Origin: Chloroflexota bacterium
Lineage (GTDB): Bacteria; Chloroflexota; Ktedonobacteria; Ktedonobacterales; JACDGC01
DNA: 52,349 nt
Direction: 5' to 3'
Assembly: GCA_021778805.1 (NCBI GenBank)
Contig: JAJYBV010000009.1
Span: 1-52,349, forward strand
Below are positions 2,025 through 48,021 of this stretch, piece after piece; the first letter of the stretch is position 1, and every line of letters begins with the position of its first letter. Below the pieces are notes generated by a model. The model was not told where the DNA came from and made no database searches. It saw nothing but the letters and a program-made list of their open reading frames with translations. Both the position numbers and the translations under genes were made by a program.

Positions 2025-2461
2025 AGATCTATCTGCTGCTCCTACTGTAATTATTGATTTTTTTCCGTTGATACGCCTGTTCGGTGTTGTTATATAACCT
2101 GCACAAACACATAGTATCCGAAAAGCAGCCGTTCTTTTTCATTATGTCACAGCGGGCGCAGTTACAATACACCGCCAATTTCAATATTTTCGCGGAAATA
2201 TGGCTATTATTACCGAGGGAATAGCCAGTGTGTGGTATACTGGCAAATAGCTATTAGTATGAACGCCAATCCTTTGGCCGGCTATTGACCGTAACGCAAT
2301 GCCGCCAAAGAGGAATCGTCACCGAATAAAACTTTCCAAATCACACATCCGGTTTTGGGAAGATAGACTTGGGGCCGTCCCCTTGCTCCGGCATCCGGTC
2401 CTTGTTCCAGGTCTTGCCTCCGCCTTTTGCATCTTCAACTTGACAGACATGTGGAGCTATT

Positions 2462-3571: not shown

Positions 3572-3577
3572 CGCAGC

Positions 3578-5767: not shown

Positions 5768-6221
5768 AAATCACGCAGTGTGGGTTTACCCCATCGCCAT
5801 GGGCGCATGCAATGGCTGCGATCAGCAAATTTTAGCGCTGAATGCGCCGGCGTATCAGCTGCGATCTATGGGCATTTCGTTTGTAAACAGCCCGCGGCAC
5901 GCCGATATTGTGCTGCTCACCGGTGTGTTAACAAAACGCATGCGCAGTATAGTAGAACGCACATTAGAGGCGGTTCCCAGCCCGCACGCACTGGTAGCAG
6001 TCGGAGATTGCGCCATTCATGGTGGCGTATTTGCCGATAATCCGCAAATTTTTGCCAACGCCTCTGATATATTAAATGTAAATATTGAAATTGCCGGCGA
6101 CCCTCCAACTCCGGATCAGATTATTGCGGCAATTGTTGAAGCTGCCCGTCAGTTAGATGAAGCCGATAAACCTGCAAATACCGCAGAATCAACACAAGAT
6201 GAGGAGGATTCGACTAAATGA
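5757..6221 (+). CDS. Group-4 [NiFe]-hydrogenase small subunit, NuoB-like, 154 aa, with a non-canonical proximal Fe-S ligand set.
   Basis: The motif V-G-D-C-A-I-H-G-G-V-F matches the NuoB/EchC GxCAxxGGxF cluster motif. The usual N-terminal CC pair is replaced by C-N-G-C. The C-terminal 'PGCPP' motif reads A-G-D-P-P-T-P, so the fourth Cys is Asp. GGGGGG lies 8 nt upstream of the ATG, and the gene overlaps the preceding gene by 11 nt, suggesting translational coupling. The C-terminus is an acidic tail. Confidence 0.7.
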   Translation: MAAKNHAVWVYPIAMGACNGCDQQILALNAPAYQLRSMGISFVNSPRHADIVLLTGVLTKRMRSIVERTLEAVPSPHALVAVGDCAIHGGVFADNPQIFANASDILNVNIEIAGDPPTPDQIIAAIVEAARQLDEADKPANTAESTQDEEDSTK

Positions 6222-7210
6222 ATCCGATAATCAGCGCGCTGATTACGATATGTATCTATCCGGGCGCACTTTTTGCTATTGTGGCAGCGGTACTGTTGGG
6301 GTGGGTTCGCGGCTATGCCCGCGCGGCAGCCTCGGGTAACGCCAACGCCGCGCCGGTGTTCTCTCTTCGCGAAATCACTCGGCGCACACGGCAGCAAAGC
6401 GTGGAAACCGAAGGCACTAATTTTGCTGTTACGCAAATAATAACTATTGCGGCAATAACCGCGCCGCTGTTAGCGCTGGTGTTTATGCCTTTTCCGGGAA
6501 ACAGCAATCCAAGCATAAGCCTGTTTCCAACAAACGCCATTGCGGAAGCCGCCCTACTGCTGGGTATGCCGTTAAGCAAAATATTGCTTGGCTGGTTAAC
6601 ACCCTCACCCTACACCCGATTAGCCGCGATACGGTCTGTACGCGCGCTGTTGGGATATGTTGTTCCGTTTGTATACGCAGTTACGGTTGCCATGGCGCTG
6701 CACGGTTCATTAACTTTGGAGGGCTTTTTTACCCCTATACCTTCGGGAACTGCAATTCATAACTATTTTATCGAGGTTATATTACTGATTGCAGGATTGC
6801 TCTATCTTATATGCATACCGGTGTTTACCCGTTTAACGCCACTGCGCGCAGATTTTGGCGCTATCGAGCTGGCGTCTGGTGAATTGACGGAATTGAGCGG
6901 CGGACAACTGCTGGTTATGCGCGCCGCCGAAGCAATTCAAACCTTGGCGTTTATCGGTTTTGGCGTCTCTATTTTTGTTGCCCCGTTATTTTCAGCCGGC
7001 GCAATTCGCTCCGTTAGTTTTATAGCGATTCTGTTTATTGTTGCTATTTTATTAGGGGTATGGGAAGGCTTCGCGCCGCGCATCCGCACATCTGAAGATT
7101 ATATGCAGCCAATAACAGCCTGGAATAACATGGGATTGCTGATATTGGAAGCAGCTGGAATACTCGGGTTTTTAGTCATACATCTCATCAACATCTATTT
7201 TCATTGGTAA
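6218..7210 (+). CDS. NuoH/EchB/HycD-like membrane anchor subunit, 330 aa.
   Basis: The start overlaps the small-subunit stop by 4 nt, with AGGAGG 9 nt upstream. The protein has multiple TM helices. D-F-G-A-I-E-L-A-S-G-E-L-T-E-L-S-G-G matches the NuoH 'FDLAEGESELVAGYxTEYSG' loop. The C-terminal P-R-I-R-T-S-E-D-Y-M-Q-P-I-T-A-W matches the NuoH 'PRxRxDQxMxxxW' motif. Confidence 0.65.
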   Translation: MNPIISALITICIYPGALFAIVAAVLLGWVRGYARAAASGNANAAPVFSLREITRRTRQQSVETEGTNFAVTQIITIAAITAPLLALVFMPFPGNSNPSISLFPTNAIAEAALLLGMPLSKILLGWLTPSPYTRLAAIRSVRALLGYVVPFVYAVTVAMALHGSLTLEGFFTPIPSGTAIHNYFIEVILLIAGLLYLICIPVFTRLTPLRADFGAIELASGELTELSGGQLLVMRAAEAIQTLAFIGFGVSIFVAPLFSAGAIRSVSFIAILFIVAILLGVWEGFAPRIRTSEDYMQPITAWNNMGLLILEAAGILGFLVIHLINIYFHW

Positions 7211-7251
7211 TTTTGGCGCATTAAGATACAGATACAACAATCCGAAGTTTA

Positions 7252-7289
7252 CAATGGGGCGGCTATAAAGCTGCCCCATTGCTATATTC
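7252..7289 (+). terminator. Candidate intrinsic terminator after the hydrogenase-like operon.
   Basis: The arms caatggggcggc / gctgccccattg form a 12-bp stem with one mismatch around a tataaa loop. A moderately U-rich tail, ctatattc, follows. Confidence 0.4.
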
Positions 7290-7454
7290 AAAACATCGCA
7301 AATGAGCAGAAAAATGCAACGCCAATACTGATTTTCGTAATTACGCAGGGGATTTTGACAAGGTCTCCATAAAGCAAAAGATACCGCGCGATATTGATAG
7401 TCAGGCAGCAAGGGCGCCAATATTGCCCTGGGAATATTTTTTTTAATAAAAAAA

Positions 7455-7510
7455 TTGGGGGGACACCCCAATCCCCGCGCAACGGGCTACCGCCCCTTAC
7501 GTATCCTCAG
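7455..7510. repeat. Solo copy of the GGGGACACCCC palindromic repeat unit.
   Basis: The sequence ggggggacaccccaatccccgcgcaacgggctaccgccccttacgtatcc has the same unit architecture as the arrays at 29981-30235, 40594-41035 and 45749-46193. Confidence 0.8.
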
Positions 7511-7572
7511 TTTTGTGCGCCGCGCCGAAGCAAAAGCGCCATAAAATAACAATACTGATTTTTTATCTTATC

Positions 7573-7601
7573 TTGACAAAATGTTCTAAGTATGTTACAA
7601 T
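7573..7601 (+). promoter_or_regulatory. Near-consensus sigma70-type promoter for the 7667 gene.
   Basis: TTGACA (7573-7578), an exact 17-bp spacer, and TACAAT (7596-7601). Confidence 0.55.
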
Positions 7602-7666
7602 AAGAACATAGGTTTTACTATAACCAATTTTAAACAGATATTTCACCGCTTTTGAGGAGGCGTGAC

Positions 7667-8395
7667 ATGAATAAACAACCAAATGAATCAATTTATCCCG
7701 CCAATTGGCTTTTTGGCAAAGATTTTGATCCCTCAGAACATCTTATGAAAATCGATCGCTTTGATCGCGCAACTCAACGTAAAATCGTTAATGAATATAT
7801 GAATGTGCAAAATCGTCTGCTTTGGTTTATCCGCGACCAGCGCGCGATTATTGCTTCCGGCGCCGCTAAAGGCGCCTATGAAATAAAAACCGAATTAATA
7901 GAGCTGGATAGGCAGGTTGGCTGGGCGCATTTTAAAACCTACATCCGCGACACGCTGGGCAACGAAGCGGTTATGTATGGCTCCGAATCCGCGCGCGATT
8001 TTCCGGATTTTATTGAAAAAGCCAACACAAAATCATTGGGCCGCGCGCTGCTTCTGCTGGGTTACGGCACAGCGTTTGCCAACGAAATGGATGAGGAAGA
8101 TCGCTTTGTGGATGCTCCTCAATCTATTACAAAAGAACCGGCTGAACCCTATAAAACCGGCGCGGCCCAGCCTAAAACCAATACCGTTTCCGTGCTTCAC
8201 GAACCGGCGGCTGATTTTGCCAAAACTCCAGACCTGATGGCTACAGAACGGCAAAAAACTAGTATTCAAAAAATCTGCGCAAAACTAGGGCAGCCTGAAC
8301 CAGATATTAATTCAATGTCGTTCGACACCGCGCGGAATACACTGGCGCAATTAAGTGTGCTACTTCAACAAAAACGAACATTGACCGCCGTATAG
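7667..8395 (+). CDS. Hypothetical protein, about 243 aa.
   Basis: The ORF track starts at a TTG (7652). An ATG at 7667 sits 6 nt after GAGGAGG and is preferred. No family was recognised. The C-terminal third is low-complexity. The gene has its own strong promoter downstream of the hydrogenase cluster. Confidence 0.5.
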   Translation: MNKQPNESIYPANWLFGKDFDPSEHLMKIDRFDRATQRKIVNEYMNVQNRLLWFIRDQRAIIASGAAKGAYEIKTELIELDRQVGWAHFKTYIRDTLGNEAVMYGSESARDFPDFIEKANTKSLGRALLLLGYGTAFANEMDEEDRFVDAPQSITKEPAEPYKTGAAQPKTNTVSVLHEPAADFAKTPDLMATERQKTSIQKICAKLGQPEPDINSMSFDTARNTLAQLSVLLQQKRTLTAV

Positions 8396-18543: not shown

Positions 18544-18846
18544 GTAACTACTCAGAGAGAACCAAAGCTTTGCATAAATAGGACATATACCACAAAATGA
18601 ACACCACATGTTGATGGTCTTAACTCAATGAAGTAGGTCATAAACAAAACTAACGCAAAAGATACAGCGAAACGCAAGCGGCAAGGGTCGCCCCTACCGG
18701 ATTGCATCGCCTCATGGGTACCGCGCAGTGGTTCATTTTATATAAAAATGTATTTGGGGACATCCCATTCCCCGCGTAAGGGGCAGCTGCCCCTTACGAA
18801 TCCCTGCATATGTGGCAGAGCAAGAGTATGATACCCCCTGAGTAGT
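18544..18846. repeat. MITE-like element with 12-bp terminal inverted repeats (GTAACTACTCAG / CTGAGTAGTTAC) carrying one GGGGACA(T)CCC palindromic unit.
   Basis: The left end is cgtaactactcagagagaacc (18544-18564). The right end is gataccccctgagtagttacc (18826-18846). The internal unit ggggacatcccattccccgcgtaaggggcagctgccccttacgaatcc lies at about 18758-18806. The right-end segment is homologous to the left end of the 29935-30400 element. Confidence 0.65.
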
Positions 18847-20499: not shown

Positions 20500-20830
20500 G
20501 TGGATGGGCAGCCATAAAACGAACACCACACGATGAATCACGTGGCTTGTTTCCCCATTTCCTCCACCCATGTTGCGGTGCGCAATACTCAATATTTCGC
20601 ATGAATTGCTATATGAATACAAACACAGCGCGGTACACATTGAGGCAATGCAATCCGGTAGGGGCGACCTTTGCGGTCGCCCTTGCCACCCGGCAAATAA
20701 TATTGCATTAGGGAATAAAAAGATATTTTGGGGACACCCCAAACCCCGCGCAAGGGGCTACCGCCCCTTACGTATCCCTGGTTACGCAGGTATATCTTAT
20801 CCCTCTTTAAAAGTGAAAGATCATCATCAT
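20500..20830. repeat. Composite repeat element comprising the 'aaaacgaacaccacacgatgaatc...' module, one GGGGACACCCC unit, and the terminal 'cgtatccctggttacgcaggtatatcttatccctctttaa' segment.
   Basis: Each of the three parts recurs in the roughly 650-bp copies at 40560-41215 and 45541-46192. Confidence 0.7.
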
Positions 20831-21007: not shown

Positions 21008-21112
21008 ATGAGCGCAAATCGATTGCAAAAGCAAGCCCCCACACGGCTACAAGCACACGGCTACAAGCACACGGCTACAAGCACACGGCTACAAATATTC
21101 TACTATTGTTAG
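21008..21112 (+). CDS. Candidate 34-codon upstream ORF (leader peptide) containing four 14-bp tandem repeats.
   Basis: An AAGGAG Shine-Dalgarno sequence lies 5 nt before the ATG at 21008. The ORF MSANRLQKQAPTRLQAHGYKHTATSTRLQIFYYC ends at TAG 21110-21112, 5 nt before the TTG start of the next gene. It is too short for the supplied ORF track. Confidence 0.3.
   Translation: MSANRLQKQAPTRLQAHGYKHTATSTRLQIFYYC
21041..21096. repeat. 14-bp direct tandem repeat (acacggctacaagc) in 4 copies, 3 of them perfect.
   Basis: Read directly at 21041-21096. The unit length is not a multiple of 3, and the repeat lies inside the upstream ORF. Confidence 0.9.
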
Positions 21113-24210: not shown

Positions 24211-24331
24211 GCTAGAGACCTGAGCCTAAAAATGGAATAAGAGGAATCGGGGGACACCCCCGGCCCCGTCAGGAGGCATACTGCCTCCTGCGCCTCCTGC
24301 TTTGTGCTTTACGTATGCTCAGGTCTCTAGC
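24211..24331. repeat. 121-bp MITE-like element with perfect 15-bp terminal inverted repeats.
   Basis: The left terminal repeat gctagagacctgagc (24211-24225) is the exact reverse complement of the right one, gctcaggtctctagc (24317-24331). The interior carries gggggacaccccc and a caggaggcatactgcctcctg hairpin. It is related to the copies at 11632 and 36357. Confidence 0.8.
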
Positions 24332-29934: not shown

Positions 29935-30400
29935 TACCTACTCAGAGGGTATCATGCTTTTGCCTGGCCACATATGCCAAGGATTTGTAAGGGGCGGTAG
30001 CCCCTTACGCGAGGTTTGGGGTGTCCCCAAATACATTTTTTATATAAAAAGGAAACACCGCACGGTACACACAGGGATTCATAAGGGGCGGTAGCCCCTT
30101 ACGCAGGGATTGGGGTGTCCCCAAAATCTCTTTTTTTATATAAAAAGGAAACACCGCACGGTACACACAGGGATTTGTAAGGGGCGGATGCCCCTTGCGC
30201 GGGGTTTGGGGTGTCCCCAAAATTATTAATAAAAACCATATTCGCAAAGCAATATTGGCAGCGCTTGTGCTTCGGAGCGGTGTAGGTGGCCATCGGCCAC
30301 CAACGCCGCACTGGAGCGCAAACGCCGTACCGTATTTTTTATGTTATTTGGATACTCCTCCCTCTTTGCGGATTTTGTCAATATCTCTTGAGTAGTTACG
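29935..30400. repeat. MITE-like element with imperfect terminal inverted repeats (GTA(C/A)CTACTCAGAG) containing a tandem array of three palindromic units of about 95 bp.
   Basis: The left end is tacctactcagagggtatcatg. The right end is tctcttgagtagttacg. Units start at about 29981, 30075 and 30171, and each contains ggggcggtagcccc and ggggtgtcccc hairpins. Confidence 0.7.
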
Positions 30401-34250: not shown

Positions 34251-35534
34251 TTGGCAAAAAAATTATTGGCGCCGCAGTTGCGTTATACATACGGAACCAT
34301 ACAAACAAATTGGGAAGTGAGGTATACTATGCGTCCATCTCGTACACACGTGAATGCCGCAGCGAAGTTTCAAACTGCACAAAAAAAATTAACCGGAACT
34401 ATGCCTGCGCTGCAAACTAACCCGCTAAAAGCCACAACTAAACATTCTTTGCCGGAATATTCCCGGCCAGATGCGCCATTGGCTTTGTGCGTAGCGGCGC
34501 TGCTGCTGTTTGGCGCTATTATGACGCAAAGCGCCAGCCAATATATCGACCCGCTTGACCCCATGCTTATTGCCCGCAAAGAAATTTTATGGGACGCGAT
34601 CGGCGCAACCGCGCTGGGTGTAACAGCATTTACCGATTATCAGATATGGAAACGTATCGCGATTCCGTTGTTTATTGCAGCAATTTTGCTTTCAGCGGCG
34701 GCGTTAGTAATGGGGCATGCGTCCTTTGGCGCACAAAGATGGATTAGTTTGGGGTCTTTCATCACATTTCAGCCCAGTGAATTTGCAAAATTAGCGTTTA
34801 TTATCTATGGCGCAAAATTTATTGATGAACGTTCGGATATCAGAACATTTAAAGATATTTGGCCTGTTTTACTAACAGGATTTGTTTTAATTGCGCTGGT
34901 TTTATTGCAAAATGACCTCGGCACCGCCATTATTATTTTTGCAATAATGATGACTATGCTTCTAATGAGCGGCATAAAACTAGAACTGCTGCTCGTGCCT
35001 ATACTCGGGGCTGCAAGTTCCGTAGCTGCAATCATAGCGCTTTCACCATTTCGCCGCGCGCGTATATTAGGGTTTATGCGCCCACTGGATTGCTATAGTT
35101 CTGCCTCTTACCAAATTTGCCAAGCGTTGATTGCTTTAGGCTCCGGTGGCATTTTCGGCCGCGGTTTAGGGCAAAGTTTACAAAAAACGGGTTATTTGCC
35201 GGCGCCCTATACCGACTCAATAATAGCGGTCATTGGTGAGGAACTTGGCCTGATTGGTGTGTGTGCGGTAATTGCTGCCTTGGCGTTTGTTGTTTGGCGG
35301 GGAATAGCGCTTTCGCGAAACGCAGCCGATACATTCGGCAGTATTTTTGCCGCCGGCGCCGCGGCATGGCTGGGAACACAAGCATTGCTGAATATTGGAT
35401 CGAATGTTGCGGCGCTGCCTTATACCGGTGTTCCATTGCCATTTATTAGTTATGGCGGCGCATCATTAACTGCTTCGATGGCGGCAATCGGCGTTTTGTT
35501 GAATATATCAATGTATAAACGTCAGACAAAATAA
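34251..35534 (+). CDS. SEDS-family peptidoglycan glycosyltransferase (FtsW/RodA/SpoVE).
   Basis: SEDS hallmarks include SEFAK, ALGSGGIFGRGLGQS, AVIGEELGLIG and PLPFISYGGASL. The start is uncertain, with internal ATGs at 34329 and later. Confidence 0.8.
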   Translation: MAKKLLAPQLRYTYGTIQTNWEVRYTMRPSRTHVNAAAKFQTAQKKLTGTMPALQTNPLKATTKHSLPEYSRPDAPLALCVAALLLFGAIMTQSASQYIDPLDPMLIARKEILWDAIGATALGVTAFTDYQIWKRIAIPLFIAAILLSAAALVMGHASFGAQRWISLGSFITFQPSEFAKLAFIIYGAKFIDERSDIRTFKDIWPVLLTGFVLIALVLLQNDLGTAIIIFAIMMTMLLMSGIKLELLLVPILGAASSVAAIIALSPFRRARILGFMRPLDCYSSASYQICQALIALGSGGIFGRGLGQSLQKTGYLPAPYTDSIIAVIGEELGLIGVCAVIAALAFVVWRGIALSRNAADTFGSIFAAGAAAWLGTQALLNIGSNVAALPYTGVPLPFISYGGASLTASMAAIGVLLNISMYKRQTK

Positions 35535-35585: not shown

Positions 35586-35613
35586 TGTTCATGTCATTTA
35601 CACCGACATAACT

Positions 35614-35649
35614 TGGTTATTTTGGTTATTTTGGTTATTTTGGTTATTT
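35614..35649. repeat. 9-bp tandem repeat (ttggttatt) in 4 copies.
   Basis: Read directly. The last copy overlaps the stop codon of the minus-strand gene 35644..36135. Confidence 0.85.
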
Positions 35650-36135
35650 TGCAAATTCTTGCGCTTTAATCAGCGGCCATAAACCTATTGCAACTCCATA
35701 CATTAAATGCTCAACAGTAAATGACGGCCAGCCAATTGTCGAAGGCATCGATCCCGATCCGATAATCGGCAATACCACAAAACTCATGACCAATAAAATA
35801 ACCACACCATACATCATTCCAGCCGCCACAGAAACGAAACCGGCTATATGCAAGGCGCGCGCCGCAAAGCCATATATAATCCCAAATACCGCCGAAACCA
35901 TCATGTGAATAACTAAGCCAATCATCGCAGGGCCAAGTGTAAAGTAAAAACTCTGGCCCATTGATGTTTCCATTGCCTGCTTTCCAACTATTGGCGCAGC
36001 TATGCCATAAAGCGGTGTAAAAAATCCTTGATGTAAAAATGTCACGGAAGCCATCATGGCGTACATCGCCATAACAACCCCCGCAATTATACCGGCAATA
36101 GCGCCGTTCACTACAAATTTTCCTGTGTTTCCCAT
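35644..36135 (-). CDS. Hypothetical integral membrane protein, 163 aa with about 5 TM helices.
   Basis: The hydrophobicity pattern is clear. No family was recognised. Confidence 0.45.
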   Translation of the reverse strand: MGNTGKFVVNGAIAGIIAGVVMAMYAMMASVTFLHQGFFTPLYGIAAPIVGKQAMETSMGQSFYFTLGPAMIGLVIHMMVSAVFGIIYGFAARALHIAGFVSVAAGMMYGVVILLVMSFVVLPIIGSGSMPSTIGWPSFTVEHLMYGVAIGLWPLIKAQEFAK

Positions 36136-38984: not shown

Positions 38985-40457
38985 TTACCGTTTCGGATAT
39001 GTGACAAAAACAGTCTTCACTTCCGACCATTCATCAACCGCAGTGGCTCCAAGCTCTCGATGCCCGTTGCCGCTCATTTTCATGCCGCCGAAGGGCAAAT
39101 GTGGTTCGGCCCCGGTTGTTCCGGCATTAACATAAATTAAACCGGATTGAATATCGCGCATAGCGTGGAAAACATTACGCATATTTTCAGTGAAAATGGC
39201 GCAAGATAAACCATATTCTACACTATTTGCAACTTCAATAGCTTCGTCATACGAAGCAACCGGCAAAACCGAAAGCACCGGACCAAATATTTCTTCACGC
39301 GCGATGCGCATTGTTGGGGTAACATCGGTGAAGACGGTAGGCTCAAAGAACGAGCCATTATCCAGTTCGCCGCCGCGCGCTGGGCGGCCGCCAACCAAAA
39401 GCCGGGCGCCTTCCGTTTTGCCAATTCCAATATATTCATCTACAGCGGCTACACGTGTTCGGTTTACCAGCGGCCCCATATCTGTTACGGGGTCTAGCCC
39501 GTCTCCAATTTTCTGGGATTTAGCCAGCGCAACCAAACGTTCATTCAGCGCGTCGACAACATTTTTATGAACGATGACGCGGCTGGTTGCAGTACAACGC
39601 TGTCCGGTTGTGCCGAAACCTGCCCAAGCAATCGCTGCCGCGGCGTCATCTAAATTTGCGTCATCCAGAACGATAACAGCGTTTTTACCGCCAAGTTCCA
39701 AGGTAACGCGGCGTAAATCTTTAGCGCAAATAGCGGCGATATGTTTGCCGACTTCGGTCGATCCGGTTAGTGAAATCATACTAACGCGCGGATCGCCGGT
39801 CAAAGCGTCGCCCAAAGTAGAGCCTGGCCCGGTTACCAAATTAATAACACCGGAGGGAATACCGGCTTCAGCCAAAATTTCCACTAATTTTAAGGACAGC
39901 AAAGGGGTATCGCTGGCAGGTTTTAAAATAACCGTATTCCCGGCCATCAGCGCAGGAAACGTTTTCCACGCCGGAATGGCTAAAGGAAAATTCCACGGGG
40001 TGATAATGCCAACAACACCCATTGGCTCACGAACGGTTAAACACATTTTATCGCGAAGCGCTGAAGGAACTGTTTCACCTTCAGCTCTGCGGCCTTCGGC
40101 GGCAACATATTTACCAAAATCGATAGCAGTTTGCAGATCGCCGCGCGCTTCTTTCAATGGTTTACCCATTTCCTGCGTGAGCAGTTTAGAAAGTTCTTCC
40201 CGGCGCTGTTCTAACAGCAGCGCGGCGCGCAAAATAATTTCGCCGCGCTCCGGCGATGGTGTGGCGCGCCAAGCCGGAAGCGCTTGTTTTGCGGCGGAAA
40301 TTGCCCGGTCTATATCTTCAGTACCGGATTGTTGAAAATAGCCAATGATTTGATCTTCATGGGCGGGATTGCGGTCGATGAATGTTTTTCCGCTAAGGGA
40401 ATTAACCCATTCACCGCCAATAAAATTCTGAAAGGTGGGGACACCGGCAGTCGTCAT
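38985..40457 (-). CDS. NAD(P)+-dependent aldehyde dehydrogenase.
   Basis: The ALDH Glu motif E-L-G-G-K-N-A is present. The Cys motif reads G-Q-R-C-T-A-T-S-R. F-T-G-S-T-E-V-G is also present. Confidence 0.85.
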   Translation of the reverse strand: MTTAGVPTFQNFIGGEWVNSLSGKTFIDRNPAHEDQIIGYFQQSGTEDIDRAISAAKQALPAWRATPSPERGEIILRAALLLEQRREELSKLLTQEMGKPLKEARGDLQTAIDFGKYVAAEGRRAEGETVPSALRDKMCLTVREPMGVVGIITPWNFPLAIPAWKTFPALMAGNTVILKPASDTPLLSLKLVEILAEAGIPSGVINLVTGPGSTLGDALTGDPRVSMISLTGSTEVGKHIAAICAKDLRRVTLELGGKNAVIVLDDANLDDAAAAIAWAGFGTTGQRCTATSRVIVHKNVVDALNERLVALAKSQKIGDGLDPVTDMGPLVNRTRVAAVDEYIGIGKTEGARLLVGGRPARGGELDNGSFFEPTVFTDVTPTMRIAREEIFGPVLSVLPVASYDEAIEVANSVEYGLSCAIFTENMRNVFHAMRDIQSGLIYVNAGTTGAEPHLPFGGMKMSGNGHRELGATAVDEWSEVKTVFVTYPKR

Positions 40458-40559
40458 CGAAGCCTGCTCCTATTGAAGCATGATAGCTGAAGCGCGCCGT
40501 CGCTAATGCGGAGCTGGCGCCGCAGCCCACAATATCAGTATATCATATTTGGTTATGAA

Positions 40560-41215
40560 CTTTAATTATTAAAAAGGGATATGATATACCTGCATAACCA
40601 AGGATACGTAAAGGGCGGTAGCCCCTTGCGCGGGGTTTGGGGTGTCCCCAAAGTATCTTTGTAAAAACAACCACCGCACGGTACACATGGGGATACGTAA
40701 GGGGCGGTAGCCCCTTGCGCGGGGTTTGGGGTGTCCCCAAAATATCTTTGTATAAACATCCATCGCACGGTACACATGGGGATACGTAAGGGGCGGATGT
40801 CCCTTACGCGGGGTTTGGGGTGTCCCCAAAATATCTTTGTATAAACATCCACCGCACGGTACACATGGGGATACGTAAAGGGCGGTAGCCCTTTGCGCGG
40901 GGTTTGGGGTGTCCCCAAAATATCTTTTTTTAAACATCCACTGCACGGTACACATGGGGATACGTAAGGGGCGGATGCCCCTTACGCGGGGATAGGGGTG
41001 TCCCCAAAATATCTTTTTTTATTTTTCCGATGGGAAATATTGGTGGCAATACGGCCACAAAACGAACACCACACGATGAATCGTGTGGCTTGTTTCCCCA
41101 CCTCCACCCGTGTGTAGCCGTGCAGTGATTATATTAAAACAAGCGCGATGGGGCACTCAATGTACTCTGCTCTGTTGATCTTCATCCTAATGAAAATATC
41201 AAAGACCATATGCCT
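40560..41215. repeat. Composite repeat, left copy. It comprises a terminal segment, five 89-bp tandem GGGGTGTCCCC palindromic units, and a roughly 185-bp 'aaaacgaacaccacacgatgaatcgtgtgg' module.
   Basis: Units start at 40602, 40691, 40780, 40869 and 40958. The 41035-41212 segment is almost identical to the reverse complement of 45541-45730. Confidence 0.85.
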
Positions 41216-41334
41216 TATTGAAATTGCCAAGGCGCTATAATTTTTATTGGCGTGTTTAACAGAACTGTGATAGGATACAATCAAGGCAAATCAACATAGT
41301 TCAGCAATGCAAAAAAATTTAGAGTGAGAACCGT

Positions 41335-42282
41335 ATGACCATATTTACTTCTTTGGAAACCACCGAACTAAAGCGCCCGCAAGTGATTAGTGTCGGCAAT
41401 TTCGATGGAGGACATCTTGGCCATGCGTATATGCTAAAAATTGCGCGCGATACAGCAGTTAATCTACAATCTGAGGTTACCGCTGTAACGTTTTGGCCGG
41501 CTCCAATGATGGTACTGCGGCCAGATGCTCATTTGCGATTTCTTACCCCAGGGTTGGAAAAAGCTGCCGCGCTGGAGCAAACGCGATTGGTTGATCATAT
41601 TGTAATGATTCCTTTTTCACACGAAATAGCGCAATTAAACGCCGAGGAATTTTTGCAAATGCTGCTGGAATATATTCCAATTTCCGCATTAGTTGAAGGT
41701 GATGATTTCCGATTAGGCCATAACCGCAGCGGAGATTCTCACATTGTTAGCGGATTTGCCGGCGCGCATAATTTTACCACAACCTATATTCCGCGCCTGC
41801 AAGACGCAAACGGGCCAATATCCAGCACCAGGATTCGCGAAAGCATTCAATTCGGCGATATGGTTTCGGCAGAAAATATGCTTGGTCGACCATATGCAGC
41901 TAAAGGTGTTGTTATCCATGGGGATGCGCGTGGCCGGCAATTAGGGTTTCCCACTGCAAATTTACGGGTTTCTGAACATAAATTACTGCCTGTAAACGGG
42001 ATATACGCCGTACAGGTTATTCGGGAGAAATTTCCGAATACTCTATTGCGCGGCGCGGCAAGTATTGGAACGAACCCAACATTTAATGGGCAGGAACACC
42101 GTTTAGAAGTATATATTTTGGATTTTAACTCTACAATTTATGATGAACAACTTGAAATACAATTTATACAGCGGCTACGCGGCGAAGAAAAGTTTTCTGG
42201 GGCAGATGAACTGATTGAGCAGATGTCTCGTGACGTAGAAGAGGTTCGGCGCGTTTTGGATATACGGGAAGTGAGGGCTTAA
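41335..42282 (+). CDS. ribF: Bifunctional riboflavin kinase / FMN adenylyltransferase.
   Basis: The N-terminal FAD-synthetase region carries VGNFDGGHLGH. The C-terminal riboflavin kinase region carries G-R-Q-L-G-F-P-T-A-N-L and E-V-Y-I-L-D-F. Confidence 0.9.
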   Translation: MTIFTSLETTELKRPQVISVGNFDGGHLGHAYMLKIARDTAVNLQSEVTAVTFWPAPMMVLRPDAHLRFLTPGLEKAAALEQTRLVDHIVMIPFSHEIAQLNAEEFLQMLLEYIPISALVEGDDFRLGHNRSGDSHIVSGFAGAHNFTTTYIPRLQDANGPISSTRIRESIQFGDMVSAENMLGRPYAAKGVVIHGDARGRQLGFPTANLRVSEHKLLPVNGIYAVQVIREKFPNTLLRGAASIGTNPTFNGQEHRLEVYILDFNSTIYDEQLEIQFIQRLRGEEKFSGADELIEQMSRDVEEVRRVLDIREVRA

Positions 42283-42284
42283 TC

Positions 42285-43127
42285 ATGAAACGGAACCGTA
42301 ACGCAATTGCTTGGTTTGAGGATAGGCTGCAAGGTTTAGTAGAAGGCTCTTTTGGCAGAATATTCCGCTCAAAACTGCAGCCGGTTGAAATATCGCATAA
42401 ATTAGTACAGGTAATGGAAGAAAATATTGTAGCGCAAGATTCTCGAAAATTAGCGCCAACTAAATATAACATTTACCTGAATCCACGAGATTACACAGAT
42501 TTAGAGCCAAGTTTGCCGGAAGTTACCACTCGTTTGCAAGATTATCTTATTTTAACGGCGAAACAGCGTGGCTATACGTTAATTATTCGTCCAATTTTGC
42601 ATTTCATTCCAGATAACAAAATATCTTTGGGGCAAACACAGGTTGAGGCTGTTTTTGAGAATATCGGTTCGTCGCAAAATATTCCTGCAAATCTCCAAAA
42701 CCCTATTCCGCAGCCAAATGTACCGCCAATTGAGACTGTAAACCCTAACGCAACTGCTATGATTTCACCTGAACAATCTGAACAATATGCTTCCGAGGTT
42801 GAAACAACGCTTACCCCTGCTCGGGATAACGCCATACCACACGCTGCGCTTTCCGAACGCGCCAGCCAAGGGTTCGGTAATACCTATCGTTTGCAAAGTG
42901 AAGTTACTCACATCGGCAGGCATTCAACTAATGATATAGTTATTAATAACCCGCGTGTTTCACGTTATCATGCGGAAATTCGCTATGAACAAGGCAAATT
43001 TATTATCTATGATATCAGCAGCACCAACGGGGTGCGCGTAAATAACCGGCGCGAAAAGCAGGCTGTTTTAAAAAATGGCGATGTTTTAGCGTTTGGCCCT
43101 GTTAGCTTTGTTTTTGAACGGAGGTAG
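42285..43127 (+). CDS. fhaA: FhaA-like protein with an N-terminal DUF3662 and a C-terminal FHA domain.
   Basis: The FHA core reads T-H-I-G-R-H-S-T-N-D-I-V-I-N-N-P-R-V-S-R-Y-H-A-E-I ... S-T-N-G-V-R-V-N. The gene sits immediately upstream of fhaB and rodA. Confidence 0.7.
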   Translation: MKRNRNAIAWFEDRLQGLVEGSFGRIFRSKLQPVEISHKLVQVMEENIVAQDSRKLAPTKYNIYLNPRDYTDLEPSLPEVTTRLQDYLILTAKQRGYTLIIRPILHFIPDNKISLGQTQVEAVFENIGSSQNIPANLQNPIPQPNVPPIETVNPNATAMISPEQSEQYASEVETTLTPARDNAIPHAALSERASQGFGNTYRLQSEVTHIGRHSTNDIVINNPRVSRYHAEIRYEQGKFIIYDISSTNGVRVNNRREKQAVLKNGDVLAFGPVSFVFERR

Positions 43128-43135
43128 CGCAGCAT

Positions 43136-43588
43136 ATGACAAATGCACTTACATTCGATCAGTTTCTGCTTATCTTACGCATTGCAATGATTGCAGTTTT
43201 GTATCTTTTTATACTTCAAGTTGTGCTGGTTTCCCGGCGTGATTTAAATATGGCGGTGCAATATCAATCTGCGCAGCCGGCCAAACAAGTAATTGGCCAC
43301 CTAACGGTTATGGATAGCGGAACCACAAAACTGAACCCCGGCAGAAGATTTGATATTTTTACAGATATGACATTGGGTCGGGGACCAACTAATACCGTTA
43401 TTTTAGAAAGCACCGTAGTTTCCGGTGAAAATACCCGTATCTATTACGAAAATAAATCGTTATGGATCGAAGATTTAGGCAGCAAAAACGGCACATTTGT
43501 AAACGAACAGCGGTTAACCAGCCCGCGCGCACTAAAATTAAACGATGTTATTCGAGTTGGCGATGTGCGTTTCAAGATAACTGCGTAA
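43136..43588 (+). CDS. fhaB: FhaB/FipA-like membrane-anchored FHA-domain protein.
   Basis: It has an N-terminal TM helix. The FHA core reads L-G-R-G-P-T-N-T-V-I-L ... S-G-E-N-T-R-I-Y ... S-K-N-G-T-F-V-N. Confidence 0.7.
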   Translation: MTNALTFDQFLLILRIAMIAVLYLFILQVVLVSRRDLNMAVQYQSAQPAKQVIGHLTVMDSGTTKLNPGRRFDIFTDMTLGRGPTNTVILESTVVSGENTRIYYENKSLWIEDLGSKNGTFVNEQRLTSPRALKLNDVIRVGDVRFKITA

Positions 43589-43679
43589 CATCTATGTCTT
43601 AATATATGCATGTACATTGATGGCTTAGTTCGCAAATATCTTTTCTTAAACTTTCCGCCAACATTCGACGGAAATTGCT

Positions 43680-45095
43680 GTGTGTTTATTTATCCTATTA
43701 GGAAGGCAGCAAAACATTATGAAACAAATATTGTCACGTATTGTGGATCTGCGTAATTACCGATGGAATGAATTGTTTTTGCTGATATTGCCAAGCGTGT
43801 TTATTCTGCTCGGCATGCTAAATCTGCAATATGTCAGTGTCAGCAACCAAGGAAAAGCTCCATCAGAAATTACGGCCAGCTCTTTACCGGGCATTGATAC
43901 ATTAGGTCCACAACTTCTGCTGATTGTGGCGCTGTTTGCTACCCATATTATTTTATCTTGGCTGATCCCGAAAGCAGATCAAACATTGCTGCCAATTACC
44001 GGTATGCTCAGTGCGCTGGGCGTTCTTATGGCTACCCGGCTTGGACCAGCGCTGCCATATCCCATACCGGTTCTGGGGTATCGCCAATTAATTTGGGTTA
44101 TCCTTGGACTCGTTTTTTGTATCGGCACAGTTTGGTTTACCCGATCGATAAAATGGCTGAGCCGTTATAAATATACATGGGCGGCCGCAGGTATTATCCT
44201 TGTGCTTGTTTCGCTTTTTCACTCTTTACGTGTTAAAAACTTCAACTCCCCCACGCATGATCAATTGAATTTGGGGTTTGGCGGGGTCGTATTTCAACCA
44301 TCTGAGCTGCTAAAATTATGCTTGGTTATATTTTTTGCAGCATATTTAAGCGAAAATCGTGAAGTATTGGCGCTTGGCGGTAAAAAAATAGGGCCGATAC
44401 ATATTCCACCACTTCGGCAATCTGCGCCATTGCTGGCAATATTATTTATTTCATTGCTGTTGTTTTTAGGCTTGCGCGAATTAGGTGTTGCGCTGCTGAT
44501 TTTCGGCATTTTTGTTTCGATGATTTACATTGCCACAAACAAAATGTCCTATGTGCTGTATTCACTAGGCTTTTTCGCCGGTGGCTCCCTTATTGCCTAT
44601 TATTTGCTTGGATACATACGCGATCGCGTTGCGCTTGTGGCAAACGCATTTTTGCCGGCATACGCCAACAATACCGGCTTTCAGATTGTGCAGGGATTAA
44701 TTGCCTTAGGAGCCGGCGGTATTTTTGGGCAAGGATTAGGACAAGGATATCCCTATTTTGTTCCCGCTGTGCAAACAGACTATGTAGCTGCGGCTGTAGG
44801 CGAGGAATTTGGCATGATGGGGCTATTTGCGCTCCTTGCCATTATGCTGCTGTTAATATATCGCGGATTTCGCATAGCTATGCGTTCACGCAGTGTATTT
44901 GAACAATTGCTTGGCGCTGGATTAAGCAGTATTTTTGCCATCCAAACCATTGTTATTTTGGCGGGCAACCTAAAATTAATACCGCTTACCGGCATACCAC
45001 TTCCGTTTATTACTTATGGCGGAAGTTCGGTTATTATTAATTTTATTATGGTTGGTCTGTTATTGCGTTTATCTGCGCCGGAAGAAACCGCATAA
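43680..45095 (+). CDS. rodA: SEDS-family peptidoglycan glycosyltransferase (RodA/FtsW).
   Basis: SEDS hallmarks include QPSELLKL, ALGAGGIFGQGLGQG, AVGEEFGMMG and PLPFITYGGSS. The gene sits directly after fhaA and fhaB, as in Actinobacteria and Chloroflexi. The likely start is the ATG at 43719 (MKQILSRIV). Confidence 0.8.
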   Translation: MCLFILLGRQQNIMKQILSRIVDLRNYRWNELFLLILPSVFILLGMLNLQYVSVSNQGKAPSEITASSLPGIDTLGPQLLLIVALFATHIILSWLIPKADQTLLPITGMLSALGVLMATRLGPALPYPIPVLGYRQLIWVILGLVFCIGTVWFTRSIKWLSRYKYTWAAAGIILVLVSLFHSLRVKNFNSPTHDQLNLGFGGVVFQPSELLKLCLVIFFAAYLSENREVLALGGKKIGPIHIPPLRQSAPLLAILFISLLLFLGLRELGVALLIFGIFVSMIYIATNKMSYVLYSLGFFAGGSLIAYYLLGYIRDRVALVANAFLPAYANNTGFQIVQGLIALGAGGIFGQGLGQGYPYFVPAVQTDYVAAAVGEEFGMMGLFALLAIMLLLIYRGFRIAMRSRSVFEQLLGAGLSSIFAIQTIVILAGNLKLIPLTGIPLPFITYGGSSVIINFIMVGLLLRLSAPEETA

Positions 45096-45191
45096 CTCGG
45101 CATCGGCAGATATCGCAACAAAACCTGCACATTAGATTTGCCGGCTGAGCAGACCAATATAATGCCGACTTTTTATCGAAAATAAAACTAT

Positions 45192-45545
45192 TTGTTAGGG
45201 ACCATATTACCTATGATGATAGCCGCAATAACTTATAATGTTTCTTTATTTACTGCCTGTTTCTTTTGGGCGTTTTCCGGAATGATTGCCGGAACTGTTG
45301 CCAATTTTGTTGTGCGTGGCCGAGGCGGATGCATTTTTGGCAATATTTTCCTTGGTTTAGTTGGCGCATTGGTAGCAACATTTCTTATCAATGTGTTTTT
45401 GCAGCAAAAAAATGTGACACTGGGCTTTTTTGAAACAACTGTTATTGCCAGTGTTGCCTCTACACTCATTGCCTATATTTTTCATACAGCGCGTAAAGCT
45501 GAAAACAAATATCAGAAAAAGCTTATGGAAAAACCACCTCAATAA
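45192..45545 (+). CDS. GlsB/YeaQ/YmgE-family small membrane protein (transglycosylase-associated protein family).
   Basis: It has 3 TM helices and glycine-rich motifs. The pattern GNIFLGLVGALVATFL is typical of the family. Confidence 0.5.
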   Translation: MLGTILPMMIAAITYNVSLFTACFFWAFSGMIAGTVANFVVRGRGGCIFGNIFLGLVGALVATFLINVFLQQKNVTLGFFETTVIASVASTLIAYIFHTARKAENKYQKKLMEKPPQ

Positions 45546-46192
45546 TGGTCTTTGATATTTTCATCAGGATGAAGATCAACAGAGCAGAGTACATTGAGTG
45601 CCCCATCGCGCCTGTTTTAATATAATCACTGCACGGTACACATGGGTGGAGGTGGGGAAACAAGCCACACGATTCATCGTGTGGTGTTCGTTTTGGGGCC
45701 ACCTTGCCATCCAATATTTCCCATCGGAAAAATAAAAAAAGATATTTTGGGGACACCCCTATCCCCGCGTAAGGGGCATCCGCCCCTTACGTATCCCCAT
45801 GTGTACCGTGCGATGGATGTTTATACAAAGATATTTTGGGGACACCCCTATCCCCGCGCAAGGGGCTACCGCCCCTTACGTATCCCCATGGGTACCGTGC
45901 AGTGGATGTTTTTACAAAGATACTTTGGGGACACCCCAAACCCCGCGCAAAGGGCTACCGCCCTTTACGTATCCCCATGGGTACCGTGCGGTGGTTGTTT
46001 ATAAAAGATATTTTTGGGGACACCCCTATCCCCGCGCAAGGGGCTACCGCCCCTTACGTATCCCCATGGGTACCGTGCGGTGGATGTTTATAAAAAGATA
46101 TTTTGGGGACACCCCTATCCCCGCGTAAGAGGCATCCGCCCCTTACGTATCCCTGGTTACGCTGGTATATCTTATCCCTCTTTAATTGTTAA
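45541..46192. repeat. Composite repeat, right copy, an inverted duplicate of 40560-41215.
   Basis: Five 89-bp units start at 45749, 45838, 45927, 46016 and 46105. The terminal segment is cgtatccctggttacgctggtatatcttatccctctttaa. The inner roughly 185 bp are about 97 % identical to the reverse complement of 41035-41212. Confidence 0.85.
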
Positions 46193-46227
46193 AGTTCATA
46201 ATAGCAGCGACCAACGAAAAACACAGA

Positions 46228-48021
46228 TTAGGCTGCGATATCTTGAGGAATATTTTCACTTGGCGACGGTGGCTCATCTTCTTCCTTTACTGTTTTTTCC
46301 ACCCAATGAAATATAACCGATGCTTGATACAAATCTTGAGAAATTGTGTTAATGCTTTGGGTATGCGTAGTAACATATTCAACTTTTTCATTCAACACAA
46401 CTGTAGCAGAAGATACTTGTTCAGCAGCAGCGCTGTTTTCCACACCAACATTTGCCGCAGCAGAAATTGCGTCGTTTACCTTAGCAGCGTTTTGGGTAAT
46501 ATTTATTGCCTGCTGCTCTGTTCCGCCCACCCGGTGCAGCGCGTATTCCACTTGATCAACGCCAGTCTCCATTGACGTTACTGCGCCTTGCGTTTCATTT
46601 TGCACTTCCTTAATAATAGCCGCAATTTCACGGGCAGCGTCACCAGATCGTTCTGCAAGCTTGCGGATTTCATCGGCAACCACCGCAAAGCTGCGGCCAT
46701 GTTCACCGGCGCGCGCAGCAACAATAGCAGCGTTTAAAGACAACAATTCCGTTTGATCTGCTAATTCATCAATAGTTTGGATGATAGAGCCAATTTCAGT
46801 CGAACGCTTCCCTAACGCACGCACTTCTTGTGAAGATTGATATATGGCTTTTTTCAACGCTTGAATAACTTGGAGGGCTTCCTTGGCGTCTGTATTCATC
46901 CGCAAAGCCTCATTATTCAGTTTTTCAACTTCATGAGCTGCCTTAATTAAATTTTTACTTTGCTGATGCGCTCCGGTTGCAACTTGTTCAATAGCAGATG
47001 CAACTTGGTGCGACGCTTCATTTGTATGCGCGGAAAAAACAACAACATCTTTGGTCTTCATGGCCATTTGTAAGCTTAGTTCTGTTACATGTGCAACCAG
47101 AATGCGCACCTTCGCAATAGTTTCACTTTGCTGTACAATTAATTTGCCAATAACGTTATTTCCTCTCCAACTCAAAAGTGTTTCATCAATATCGCTCAGT
47201 TCACCTTGCGCCATATTTTCTAAAACAGCGGATAGCAGATGCAACGGTTTGGTAATAGTATAATTTAATATTTCAGCAAAGAAAATTGCGCCAATTGTAA
47301 TGATGATGCCTAACAAAATCATCAACCAAAACAATGTATTAATTGCGGTTGAAATATTTGATTCCGCGGCATTCGTTTGCAATAGCAAAGCTGCAGAAAG
47401 ATTTGCCATATTTTGCAGCAGCATATTTTCATTGCTTTGCATTTGACTATACAATCCAATAGTTTGCAGATGCGCTGAATTTGATCCACCGGATAGCGCG
47501 TTTTGCAGTATTGTGGCGCTGCTTAAAAAATTCTGAATGGCAGTTTCTGTTTGACGAAACTGTTTCTGCGTTTGGGTGTTTTCATTCAATTTTGCAAAAT
47601 GGTTCATTGCTACGGACAATGCAGACTCGGAAGTTTGCAGCGTCTGTTTAATGGCAGGTGAATAGCCAAATGAAACATTTATGGCCTGTGAAAAGTTTAA
47701 AACAATAGTTAAACTATCGGCGCGCATTGCCGAAATATCATTCGCTCCCACCGTATCATTATTTACTATTCCTGCGTTGATTGATTTAATTTGCATATCT
47801 TTTTGAATTACTACCGCTCCGGTAATAAAAAATACAACAAAAATATATGCTGACGCGCTTCTCATTCTTGTTGAGATGGTTAAATTATTAAAAAGCGAAA
47901 ATGCTTTACGCCGAACTAGATGCATGTAACCCGCCATGGCGCAAATATACCTCCTATAAGTTAGGTTTGCATACACATAACTATCGGAATGTATATTCAT
48001 AACATAAGTGGCATTTTGCAA
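46228..48021 (-). CDS. Methyl-accepting chemotaxis protein.
   Basis: The highly conserved MCP signalling hairpin [32 protein letters not shown] is present, along with a HAMP domain and two TM helices. The true start is probably internal, at the [16 protein letters not shown] (47865). Confidence 0.85.

Follow-up and report, generated by a model that had tools for sequence, protein, structure and literature searches.

A two-hairpin intergenic repeat of Chloroflexota, probably a modular BOX-like element, that forms tandem arrays

The BOX elements of pneumococci and other streptococci, on which Martin reportedly wrote in 1992, are the best described analogue of the repeat considered here. That repeat occupies intergenic regions of contig JAJYBV010000009.1 (assembly GCA_021778805.1, Chloroflexota), the 52,349 nt of which were analysed as a whole and are referred to below as the window. 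BOX elements have the arrangement boxA-boxB(n)-boxC, in which boxB is a variable tandem array between boxA and boxC and longer arrays vary more between strains (Croucher 2011, PMC3049150). In S. suis (Streptococcus suis), the same boxB is flanked either by boxA and boxC or by boxE and boxF (PMC3049150). The window repeat resembles BOX in being modular and intergenic, with an internal module of about 45-90 nt repeated head to tail between end modules and a number of units that varies between strains. Both have predicted stem-loops, and both are similar to transposable elements of the miniature inverted-repeat type (MITEs) in carrying terminal inverted repeats (TIRs) and target-site duplications (TSDs), in the Chloroflexota family chiefly at copies in other genomes, while encoding no transposase. 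Likewise, the same core of the window family is flanked by different TIRs or by different flank modules. The likeness is one of architecture by description and not of homology; the two occur in different phyla, across which no sequence similarity would be expected. The Chloroflexota family also differs from BOX in that the amplified internal module is its most conserved part, across classes of the phylum, which is not reported for boxB, and in that arrays in some genomes have no recognisable end modules. We consider it probable that the units are a non-autonomous, modular, BOX-like repeat of MITE type that is widespread in Chloroflexota, and whose internal module is amplified in tandem and expands and contracts.

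A typical MITE family takes its definition from its TIRs and is confined to a species or genus. MITEs in general, of which Correia/NEMIS, Nezha, RUP and ERIC are examples, share with the copies of the present family in other genomes a length of 100-130 bp, the absence of coding capacity, TIRs, a 9-bp TSD and many near-identical, strongly base-paired intergenic copies per genome. The family differs from these MITEs in having at least five TIR types round one two-hairpin core, and its copies in the window are arrays without clear TIR or TSD. With repetitive extragenic palindromic (REP) sequences, bacterial interspersed mosaic elements (BIMEs) and the GTAG REP super-family (PMC3733652) it has in common GC-rich extragenic hairpins that are clustered, occur in high copy number and in some cases carry GTAG. 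In contrast to REP/BIME elements, however, the units run head to tail and not as inverted pairs, GTAG is unconserved and lies in a loop, and the TIR-bounded relatives have TSDs. A first inspection of the DNA (hereafter the sequence-only reading) had judged the arrays distinct from REP/BIME elements; this distinction holds, but the arrays are not new in kind and fit modular MITE-like repeats.

The loci with mycobacterial interspersed repetitive units and variable numbers of tandem repeats (MIRU-VNTR) consist of 40-100-bp tandem units at dispersed intergenic sites, with unit numbers that vary between strains; MIRUs lie within operons in one orientation and contain small open reading frames (ORFs) coupled to the flanking genes. 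The window repeat likewise forms tandem units in variable number at several dispersed intergenic loci, but its 89-nt period is not a multiple of three, and it has neither a conserved frame nor an orientation bias. Regularly spaced, GC-rich palindromic repeats are also a property of CRISPR arrays. The window arrays have no spacers and are not CRISPR, as had been recognised, because each unit repeats the stretch that links one core to the next, at 87-100% identity. Pfam scans of 30 window ORFs, comprising most of the larger ones and none from 31.6 to 38.8 kb, returned no cas genes. The units resemble a type I-E CRISPR repeat (GCGGGGATA) only superficially.

Arrays were called with Tandem Repeats Finder (TRF), and cores were placed with a family hidden Markov model (HMM; nhmmer). 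The two agree on three tandem arrays, of three, five and five units by the HMM, the same numbers that had been read by eye. TRF reports array 1 at 29981-30223 (period 96, 2.6 copies, 89% matches), array 2 at 40602-41016 on the + strand (period 89, 4.7 copies, 92% matches) and array 3 at 45738-46153 on the - strand (period 89, 4.7 copies, 91% matches), the consensus of the last being the reverse complement of that of array 2; in each case core and linker together, 89-96 nt, form a single TRF period. The HMM, together with reading of the sequence, places 3, 5 and 5 cores in arrays 1, 2 and 3. Three solo cores bring the HMM count in the window to 16, all of which are intergenic, as is a degenerate copy at 24211-24331. 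A 38-nt core pattern occurs 11 times at three or fewer mismatches, against none in 100 shuffles, and GGGGTGTCCCC occurs 17 times at one mismatch or none, against 0.34 expected. The copies in the window, with the evidence for each, are as follows.

29980-30235 (+): array 1, three units arranged head to tail, period 94-96; core positions 29980-30042, 30074-30136 and 30170-30227 (TRF, nhmmer, sequence, Pfam)
40594-41035 (+): array 2, five units, period 89; cores at 40603-40661, 40689-40752, 40778-40840, 40868-40930 and 40956-41019 (TRF, nhmmer, sequence)
45735-46193 (-): array 3, oriented the other way, five units, period 89 (TRF, nhmmer, sequence)
7447-7508 (-): solo core between two + strand genes, one nuoH-like and the other an unannotated ORF (nhmmer, Pfam)
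18712-18803 (-): solo full unit, comprising a core at 18743-18803 and the linker motif AACCACTGCGCGGTACCCATG; loop 1 is altered to GGGGCAGCTGCCCC (nhmmer, sequence)
20715-20778 (-): solo core with 0 mismatches to the 38-nt consensus; an imperfect outer stem encloses both hairpins (pattern search, sequence)
24211-24331 (-): degenerate 121-bp copy bounded by TIRs, in which ATACGTAA and GGGGTGTCCCC are retained and hairpin 1 is replaced; its ends are perfect 15-bp inverted repeats, GCTAGAGACCTGAGC (read directly)

Each unit consists of a core of about 60 nt and an AT-rich linker of 30-36 nt that carries CCACCGCACGGTACACATGG, and GGGGCGGTAGCCCC, GGGGTGTCCCC and four G-runs are found in every unit. 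As first described, there are four GGGG runs and two local palindromes per unit. The unit as a whole is not a palindrome, however, and the hairpins, which had been taken to be nested, lie side by side in the folds. Hairpin 1 has the form CGTAAGGGGC-GGTA-GCCCCTTGCG, and the adjacent hairpin 2 is TTTGGGG-TGT-CCCCAAA. Centroid folds of either strand, computed as RNA or as DNA, return these two hairpins (CGUAAGGGGC-GGUA-GCCCCUUGCG and UUUGGGG-UGU-CCCCAAA) with modest z-scores (-1.6 to -3.8 for RNA and about -3 for DNA), and in some contexts a weak outer stem surrounds both. The part of the element conserved in the family spans approximately 50-60 nt, in which the loop GGYA of hairpin 1 lies between GGGGC and GCCCC and the loop TGT of hairpin 2 lies between GGGG and CCCC. 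A further G-run precedes each hairpin, and a pyrimidine- or T-rich tail follows the core.

Base pairs were counted in a 46-sequence alignment that spans the phylum and were compared with counts in which the pairing partners had been shuffled (500 shuffles). Standard pairs make up 89.4% of cells, against 81.3 +/- 0.9% with shuffled partners, and 63 cells are compensatory in that both sides have changed, against 25.8 +/- 4.3, with none of the 500 shuffles as high. When the 3' partner was slid by 1-3 columns as a control, pairing was 47-72%. In anchored counts the stem extensions use four pair types (A-T, G-C, C-G and T-A), and within the window a compensated AAAGGGC...GCCCTTT variant occurs in one unit each of arrays 2 and 3. 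This comparative evidence indicates that both hairpins are real constraints. The covariation fits an RNA, a single-stranded DNA or a duplex palindrome alike and cannot tell these apart. Two other readings of the unit were rejected. A small ORF on the C-rich strand, behind a Shine-Dalgarno-like AAGGAG, has start codons and frames that by eye differ between subfamilies, and 89 nt, the period, is not divisible by three; a sigma-54 promoter reading of GGCAGCCCCTTGC has, on inspection, a spacing that is off by one.

To define the distribution of the family, a relaxed core pattern (GGGGCGGNNGCCC-N8-20-GGGGTGTCCCC) was searched in 185,579 species genomes. It matches at least 61 loci, with about 53 Chloroflexota among the matches listed, and approximately one chance match is estimated. 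The Chloroflexota carriers comprise Ktedonobacteraceae metagenome-assembled genomes (MAGs), Dictyobacter aurantiacus, D. alpinus, Dehalococcoidia and Chloroflexia; a few actinobacterial and clostridial matches look like chance or coding matches. The strict 38-nt pattern has no match in the same genomes, and the species from which the window derives is therefore not among these representatives. No match to the relaxed pattern was found in 2.9 million viral contigs, and none to a window-type unit-junction pattern in the JGI metagenomes; a lineage-type pattern identified two more members in metagenomes, one of them in an AT-rich contig with the loop GTTT. Features outside the search pattern are conserved as well: one G-run lies 3-5 nt upstream of hairpin 1 and another separates the two hairpins, hairpin 2 is followed by a pyrimidine-rich tail (for example CTCTTTCTCCTT), and a third hairpin, GCCGCCGAAGGCGGC, is often present. 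Head-to-tail arrays of cores without TIRs occur elsewhere at loci L052 (period about 52), L053 (about 80), L065, L032 and L064, and array formation is thus a property of the family and not of the window. The proposal that these are array-forming, lineage-specific elements is borne out.

The tail that follows hairpin 2 is often CACCTCCTC, ACCTCTCCTT or ACCTCCCTTT (loci L016, L017, L034, L053 and L075). Such a tail resembles the anti-Shine-Dalgarno 3' end of 16S rRNA and corresponds to a strong AAGGAG on the other strand; at those Chloroflexota loci no conserved start codon or frame follows this AAGGAG.

The window has a rather low GC content of about 45%, and the best named homologues of its PheS are in Ktedonobacterales, at 65-67% identity; its host is therefore an uncultured member of Chloroflexota related to Ktedonobacteria. 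An assignment to the 'BrickBuilt' MITE of Bacteroidetes/Porphyromonas, guessed from GC content, was discarded on the gene content (MCP, FhaA/FHA, RodA) and the PheS homologues, which are those of Chloroflexota. Rfam gives no match at gathering score in the window and none at the cores of the Chloroflexota loci, even at E<=1; for array 2 nothing relevant appears at E<=10, a mir-373 hit at E=2.5 being spurious. In the literature searched, the strings GGGGTGTCCCC, GGGGACACCCC and GGGGUGUCCCC match only unrelated papers, and neither a search of that literature by sequence string and keyword nor Rfam yielded a published description of the family.

Evidence for mobility comes from relatives in other genomes. 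SMAG_U9878, a MAG of Ktedonobacteraceae, contains at least 15 near-identical copies of about 125 bp bounded by CAGGGCTATGTAATGCTC...GAGCATTACATAGCCCTG, and the five copies checked base by base have perfect 9-bp TSDs of unrelated target sequence, such as GACGCATTG, ATAGAGCCG and GTAGGAGCA. Copies in DATAYF have the TIR CGATGTGCACG, with a 9-bp TSD at one copy and one of about 8 bp at a second. In Dictyobacter the TIRs are CAGGTATAGG...CCTATACTTG and the duplications about 9-12 bp, copies in Baikal Dehalococcoidia have TIRs of about 28 bp, and the copy at locus L080 has CAGGGCTGTTG...CAACAGCCCTG. One conserved core is found within at least five different end types, in elements of 105-130 bp. Ends with CAGGG and duplications of 8-10 bp are typical of the ISAs1 family, and the CAGGG ends with 9-bp TSDs of the present family may be ISAs1-like. 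The copies are dispersed next to unrelated genes: in a set of 142 ORFs lying within 2 kb of cores, each Pfam family occurs at most three times, and no transposase is among the 25 most frequent families listed. Relative to co-directional neighbours, 11 copies are sense and nine antisense, and a further nine lie in divergent and four in convergent regions. One of the SMAG_U9878 copies (locus L012, 1137-1260) lies about 110 nt upstream of an S-adenosylmethionine (SAM) riboswitch (1372-1478; 80.6 bits).

Related assemblies differ both in the presence of the element and in unit number. Contigs that encode proteins identical to those of the window were found in the MAGs GCA_027399335.1, GCA_027399295.1, GCA_027399375.1 and GCA_027350185.1. 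Array 1 has three units in the window and in two other assemblies. Array 2 has five units in the window and three in GCA_027399335.1. At the site of array 3 the window again has five, against one in GCA_027350185.1 (nhmmer), and the 505-bp intergenic spacer of GCA_027399335.1 implies about three. In GCA_027459525.1, a relative at about 90% protein identity, the corresponding site beside the MCP gene is a 71-bp spacer with no element, and in the spacer between the aldehyde dehydrogenase gene and ribF there is one copy, diverged and reversed, which has 11-bp TIRs of its own (GACTTTCGCTT). Copy-number variation, which had been suggested for the arrays, is accordingly supported by the five, three or one units of related assemblies, although collapse during assembly may account for it.

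In several Chloroflexota genomes the core thus serves as the internal module of MITEs of 105-130 bp. We propose that these insert by a cut-or-copy-and-paste mechanism with 9-bp target duplication, their transposase presumably being supplied in trans. In the lineage of the window, the core and its linker would have been amplified head to tail between lineage-specific flank modules, and array length may then shift by slipped-strand mispairing or unequal recombination between units. The arrays may have originated by slippage or recombination, and the window copies may have been mobilised in the same way as the TIR-bounded copies elsewhere.

Several observations weigh against this proposal. The array composites of the window have no recognisable TSD or convincing TIR when compared with the empty or otherwise occupied sites of the relative, and their outer stems are weak; for this reason transposition of these particular copies is something that we infer. 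No autonomous insertion sequence with matching ends was found in any Chloroflexota locus examined (8-kb loci, with no widely spaced TIR pairs), and no transposase is present among the scanned window ORFs. The gene calls on which the orientation counts depend are crude longest-ORF calls. The differences in unit number come from short-read assemblies in which tandem repeats may have collapsed, and this is a real caveat because many contigs end exactly at arrays. Finally, a purely selfish repeat leaves unexplained why the core, including its unpaired G-runs and loops, is conserved across classes while the TIRs differ.

One explanation for this conservation, which is possible though not likely, is that the core is a phylum-wide recognition structure for some protein, such as a nuclease, a recombinase or an RNA-binding factor, that drives head-to-tail amplification. 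The suggestion is based on the invariant GGGGC..GCCCC and GGGGTGTCCCC clamps, the conserved loops and the two unpaired G-runs, and on the retention of the core across Ktedonobacteria, Dehalococcoidia and Chloroflexia within differing TIRs.

It is also conceivable, but doubtful, that the repeat is a host-selected element that acts on the G-rich strand as a terminator or insulator, a 3'-end stabiliser or a protein-binding RNA, so that MITEs would merely carry it and arrays would be stacked terminators. Covariation of both hairpins and conservation of loops and unpaired G-runs across classes would be expected of such an element. Moreover, after hairpin 2 comes a T-run or a CU-rich tail, and hairpin and T-run together resemble an intrinsic terminator on the G-rich strand. 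A terminator scan of 40300-46400 returned 20 sites, against 7.3 +/- 2.8 in shuffles, and flagged five units (four in array 2 and one in array 3); the last units of arrays 2 and 3 end, as read from the sequence, in a long T-run after the hairpin. Array 3 and the copies at 18743 and 24250 each lie just downstream of a gene in the sense orientation; for array 3 this is the MCP gene (-). The wider set of copies, however, shows no orientation bias, and those in divergent regions have nothing to terminate. Within the window, array 1 lies between the divergent genes for a Band_7 protein (-) and an AttH/CrtC-lipocalin protein (+), and array 2 between those for an aldehyde dehydrogenase (-) and ribF (+), so that both occupy divergent promoter regions, and the solo core at 7447-7508 is antisense to both of its neighbours. 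The absence of any corresponding Rfam family also argues against a functional RNA, and near-identical, TSD-flanked copies in one genome indicate recent proliferation and not conservation in place. In the modular repeat, too, hairpin 2 and the T-run may have an effect on transcription.

A relationship to REP/BIME-type elements that are spread by a REP-associated tyrosine transposase (RAYT, of the Y1 HUH type) acting on single-stranded hairpins is improbable. It is true that GTAG is found within GGGGCGGTAGCCCC, directly 5' of an alternative small hairpin, CCCC-TTGCGC-GGGG, and that GTAG-type REP hairpins adjoin two of the elements (GTAGGGGCGACCTTTGCGGTCGCCC at 20658 and GTAGGTGGCCATCGGCCAC at 30282); GTAG REPs, often clustered, have been reported in Chloroflexi (PMC3733652). 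Most family members, however, have GCAG, GGAG or GCCG in place of GTAG, the tetranucleotide falls within the loop of the well-supported hairpin 1, and the alternative stem is of only 4 bp. The arrays are strictly head to tail, whereas most REP families have few or no dimers arranged in this way (PMC3733652). TSDs of 9 bp outside TIRs indicate a mechanism of the DDE type, since Y1 transposases make none, and the 30 window ORFs scanned include no RAYT or other Y1_Tnp gene.

The suggestion of G-quadruplex or i-motif potential fares worse. An intramolecular G-quadruplex, with an i-motif opposite, is very improbable as the selected feature through which the repeat might affect replication, recombination or transcription. 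Every unit does carry four runs of three or four G residues within about 45 nt, runs 1 and 3 are outside both hairpins and yet conserved across Chloroflexota, and at some units G4Hunter gives 1.4-1.44 in 25-nt windows over runs 1-2. Against this, no canonical motif with G3+ runs separated by N1-7, or even by N1-12, occurs anywhere in the window, and the four runs can be accommodated only if the central loop is allowed 16 nt, which include a C-run complementary to runs 2 and 3. G4Hunter scores 0.6 over the core, and its maximum in the window is 1.48, so that no 25-nt window attains 1.5. The two covarying hairpins, which dominate the predicted RNA and DNA folds, have runs 2 and 4 as their 5' arms.

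That the arrays are local tandem or segmental duplications without a wider family is refuted, despite the flank modules that arrays 2 and 3 share and that could reflect one duplicated segment, by solo copies elsewhere in the window, at three or four intergenic sites, and by the same core at 53 or more Chloroflexota loci; this dispersal also answers the check, proposed at the outset, of whether the motif recurs elsewhere.

A larger inverted repeat has arrays 2 and 3 at its core, and each of its arms consists of a left module of about 50 nt, the array and a right module of about 200 bp. The arms, as delimited by blastn, are as follows.

40553-41209 (+): left arm, comprising the left module, array 2 and the right module
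45545-46201 (-): right arm, comprising the right module, array 3 and the left module

The two are 92% identical over 659 nt in inverted orientation, with a longest exact match of 101 nt (blastn). Their left module is also present at the solo copy at 20715-20778, and another left module is common to array 1 and the copy at 18743-18803. The right module, of about 200-245 bp, is found at 41006-41250 and 45545-45748 and in part at 20511-20557, and is 96% identical after arrays 2 and 3. It contains a hairpin with a 9-bp stem (GCCACACGATTCATCGTGTGG) that is terminator-like on both strands by scan, and a possible hydrophobic ORF of about 30 codons (MGHSMYSALLIFILMKISK...). The right module could be a gene for a small RNA or a small protein, or another repeat module.

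The inverted repeat brackets ribF, fhaA, a gene for an FHA-domain protein (fhaB), rodA/ftsW and an ORF of 110-117 amino acids (Pfam). The segment 41335-45545, with ribF and the genes for FhaA, the FHA protein and RodA/FtsW, is a cell-wall regulation cluster of actinobacterial style, and the gene order from ribF to rodA is kept, without arrays, in GCA_027459525.1. Two composites in inverted orientation would make the 659-nt repeat round ribF-fhaA-fhaB-rodA a potential substrate for inversion. In one contig (locus L069, the same as L085; ERZ27236853 k141_441811, 1-7797), the MCP flank is joined through a hybrid array to ribF, which corresponds to the inverted orientation; the MCP 3' flank is found at both ends of this contig, around the ribF-rodA segment. 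The contig represents either a population in which both orientations are mixed or a fold-back assembly artefact. The orientation seen in the window is that of every other contig for which the gene table was inspected (L001/L081/L084 and L068), and inversion of the ribF segment, with L069 as its single supporting contig, is possible.

In two further contigs the ribF array has other upstream neighbours, an ABC transporter gene in one (L070, 1-1700; GCA_027399295.1) and genes for a peptidase M29 and a PIN toxin in the other (L071, 1-2900; ERZ27233572). These joins are either chimeras through arrays elsewhere in the genome or real rearrangements.

Other short motifs and repeats lie near the copies. 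A conserved GCAATATTGG or GAAATATTGG motif is present 20-30 nt downstream of the last core at all three arrays and at two of the three solo copies (7447-7508 and 20715-20778), the positions recorded being ~41033-41046, ~30252-30262, ~7425-7435 (-) and ~20690-20700 (-). GTAG-headed REP-like hairpins, similar to the GTAG REPs known from Chloroflexi (PMC3733652), were noted at 20658-20682 (+), 30282-30300 (+) and 18680-18700 (-), and the intergenic regions have the appearance of mosaics in which several families of small repeats are combined. At 21040-21094, about 260 nt from the solo copy at 20715-20778, is a perfect 14-bp tandem repeat, CACACGGCTACAAG x3.9, whose reverse complement (TGTAGCCGTGTG) resembles both the linker motif CCGCACGGTACACA and, within the array 2 right module, GTGTGTAGCCGTGCAG (41108-41127). 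At 35613-35651 TRF reports another perfect tandem repeat, of 9 bp (TTGGTTATT x4.3), which lies between the ORFs 34251-35534 (+) and 35644-36135 (-) and extends 8 nt into the 3' end of the latter.

On our best reading the element is a previously undescribed selfish intergenic repeat of a fairly ordinary sort and not a G-quadruplex device. What is unusual is a phylum-conserved internal module inside MITEs with unrelated ends, and this conservation points either to a MITE lineage that is very old and diversifying or to a functional structure retained by mobile elements. If the core does prove to be a recognition structure, the family would represent a new class of structured bacterial repeat with its own mechanism of propagation. 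In practical terms the family causes short-read assemblies of these Chloroflexota to break up: arrays form the ends of contigs, one contig folds back, and ribF appears in three upstream contexts. The same arrays are ready-made strain markers of VNTR type. The 659-nt inverted repeat surrounds genes for essential cell-wall and flavin adenine dinucleotide (FAD) functions, and inversion could occur there.

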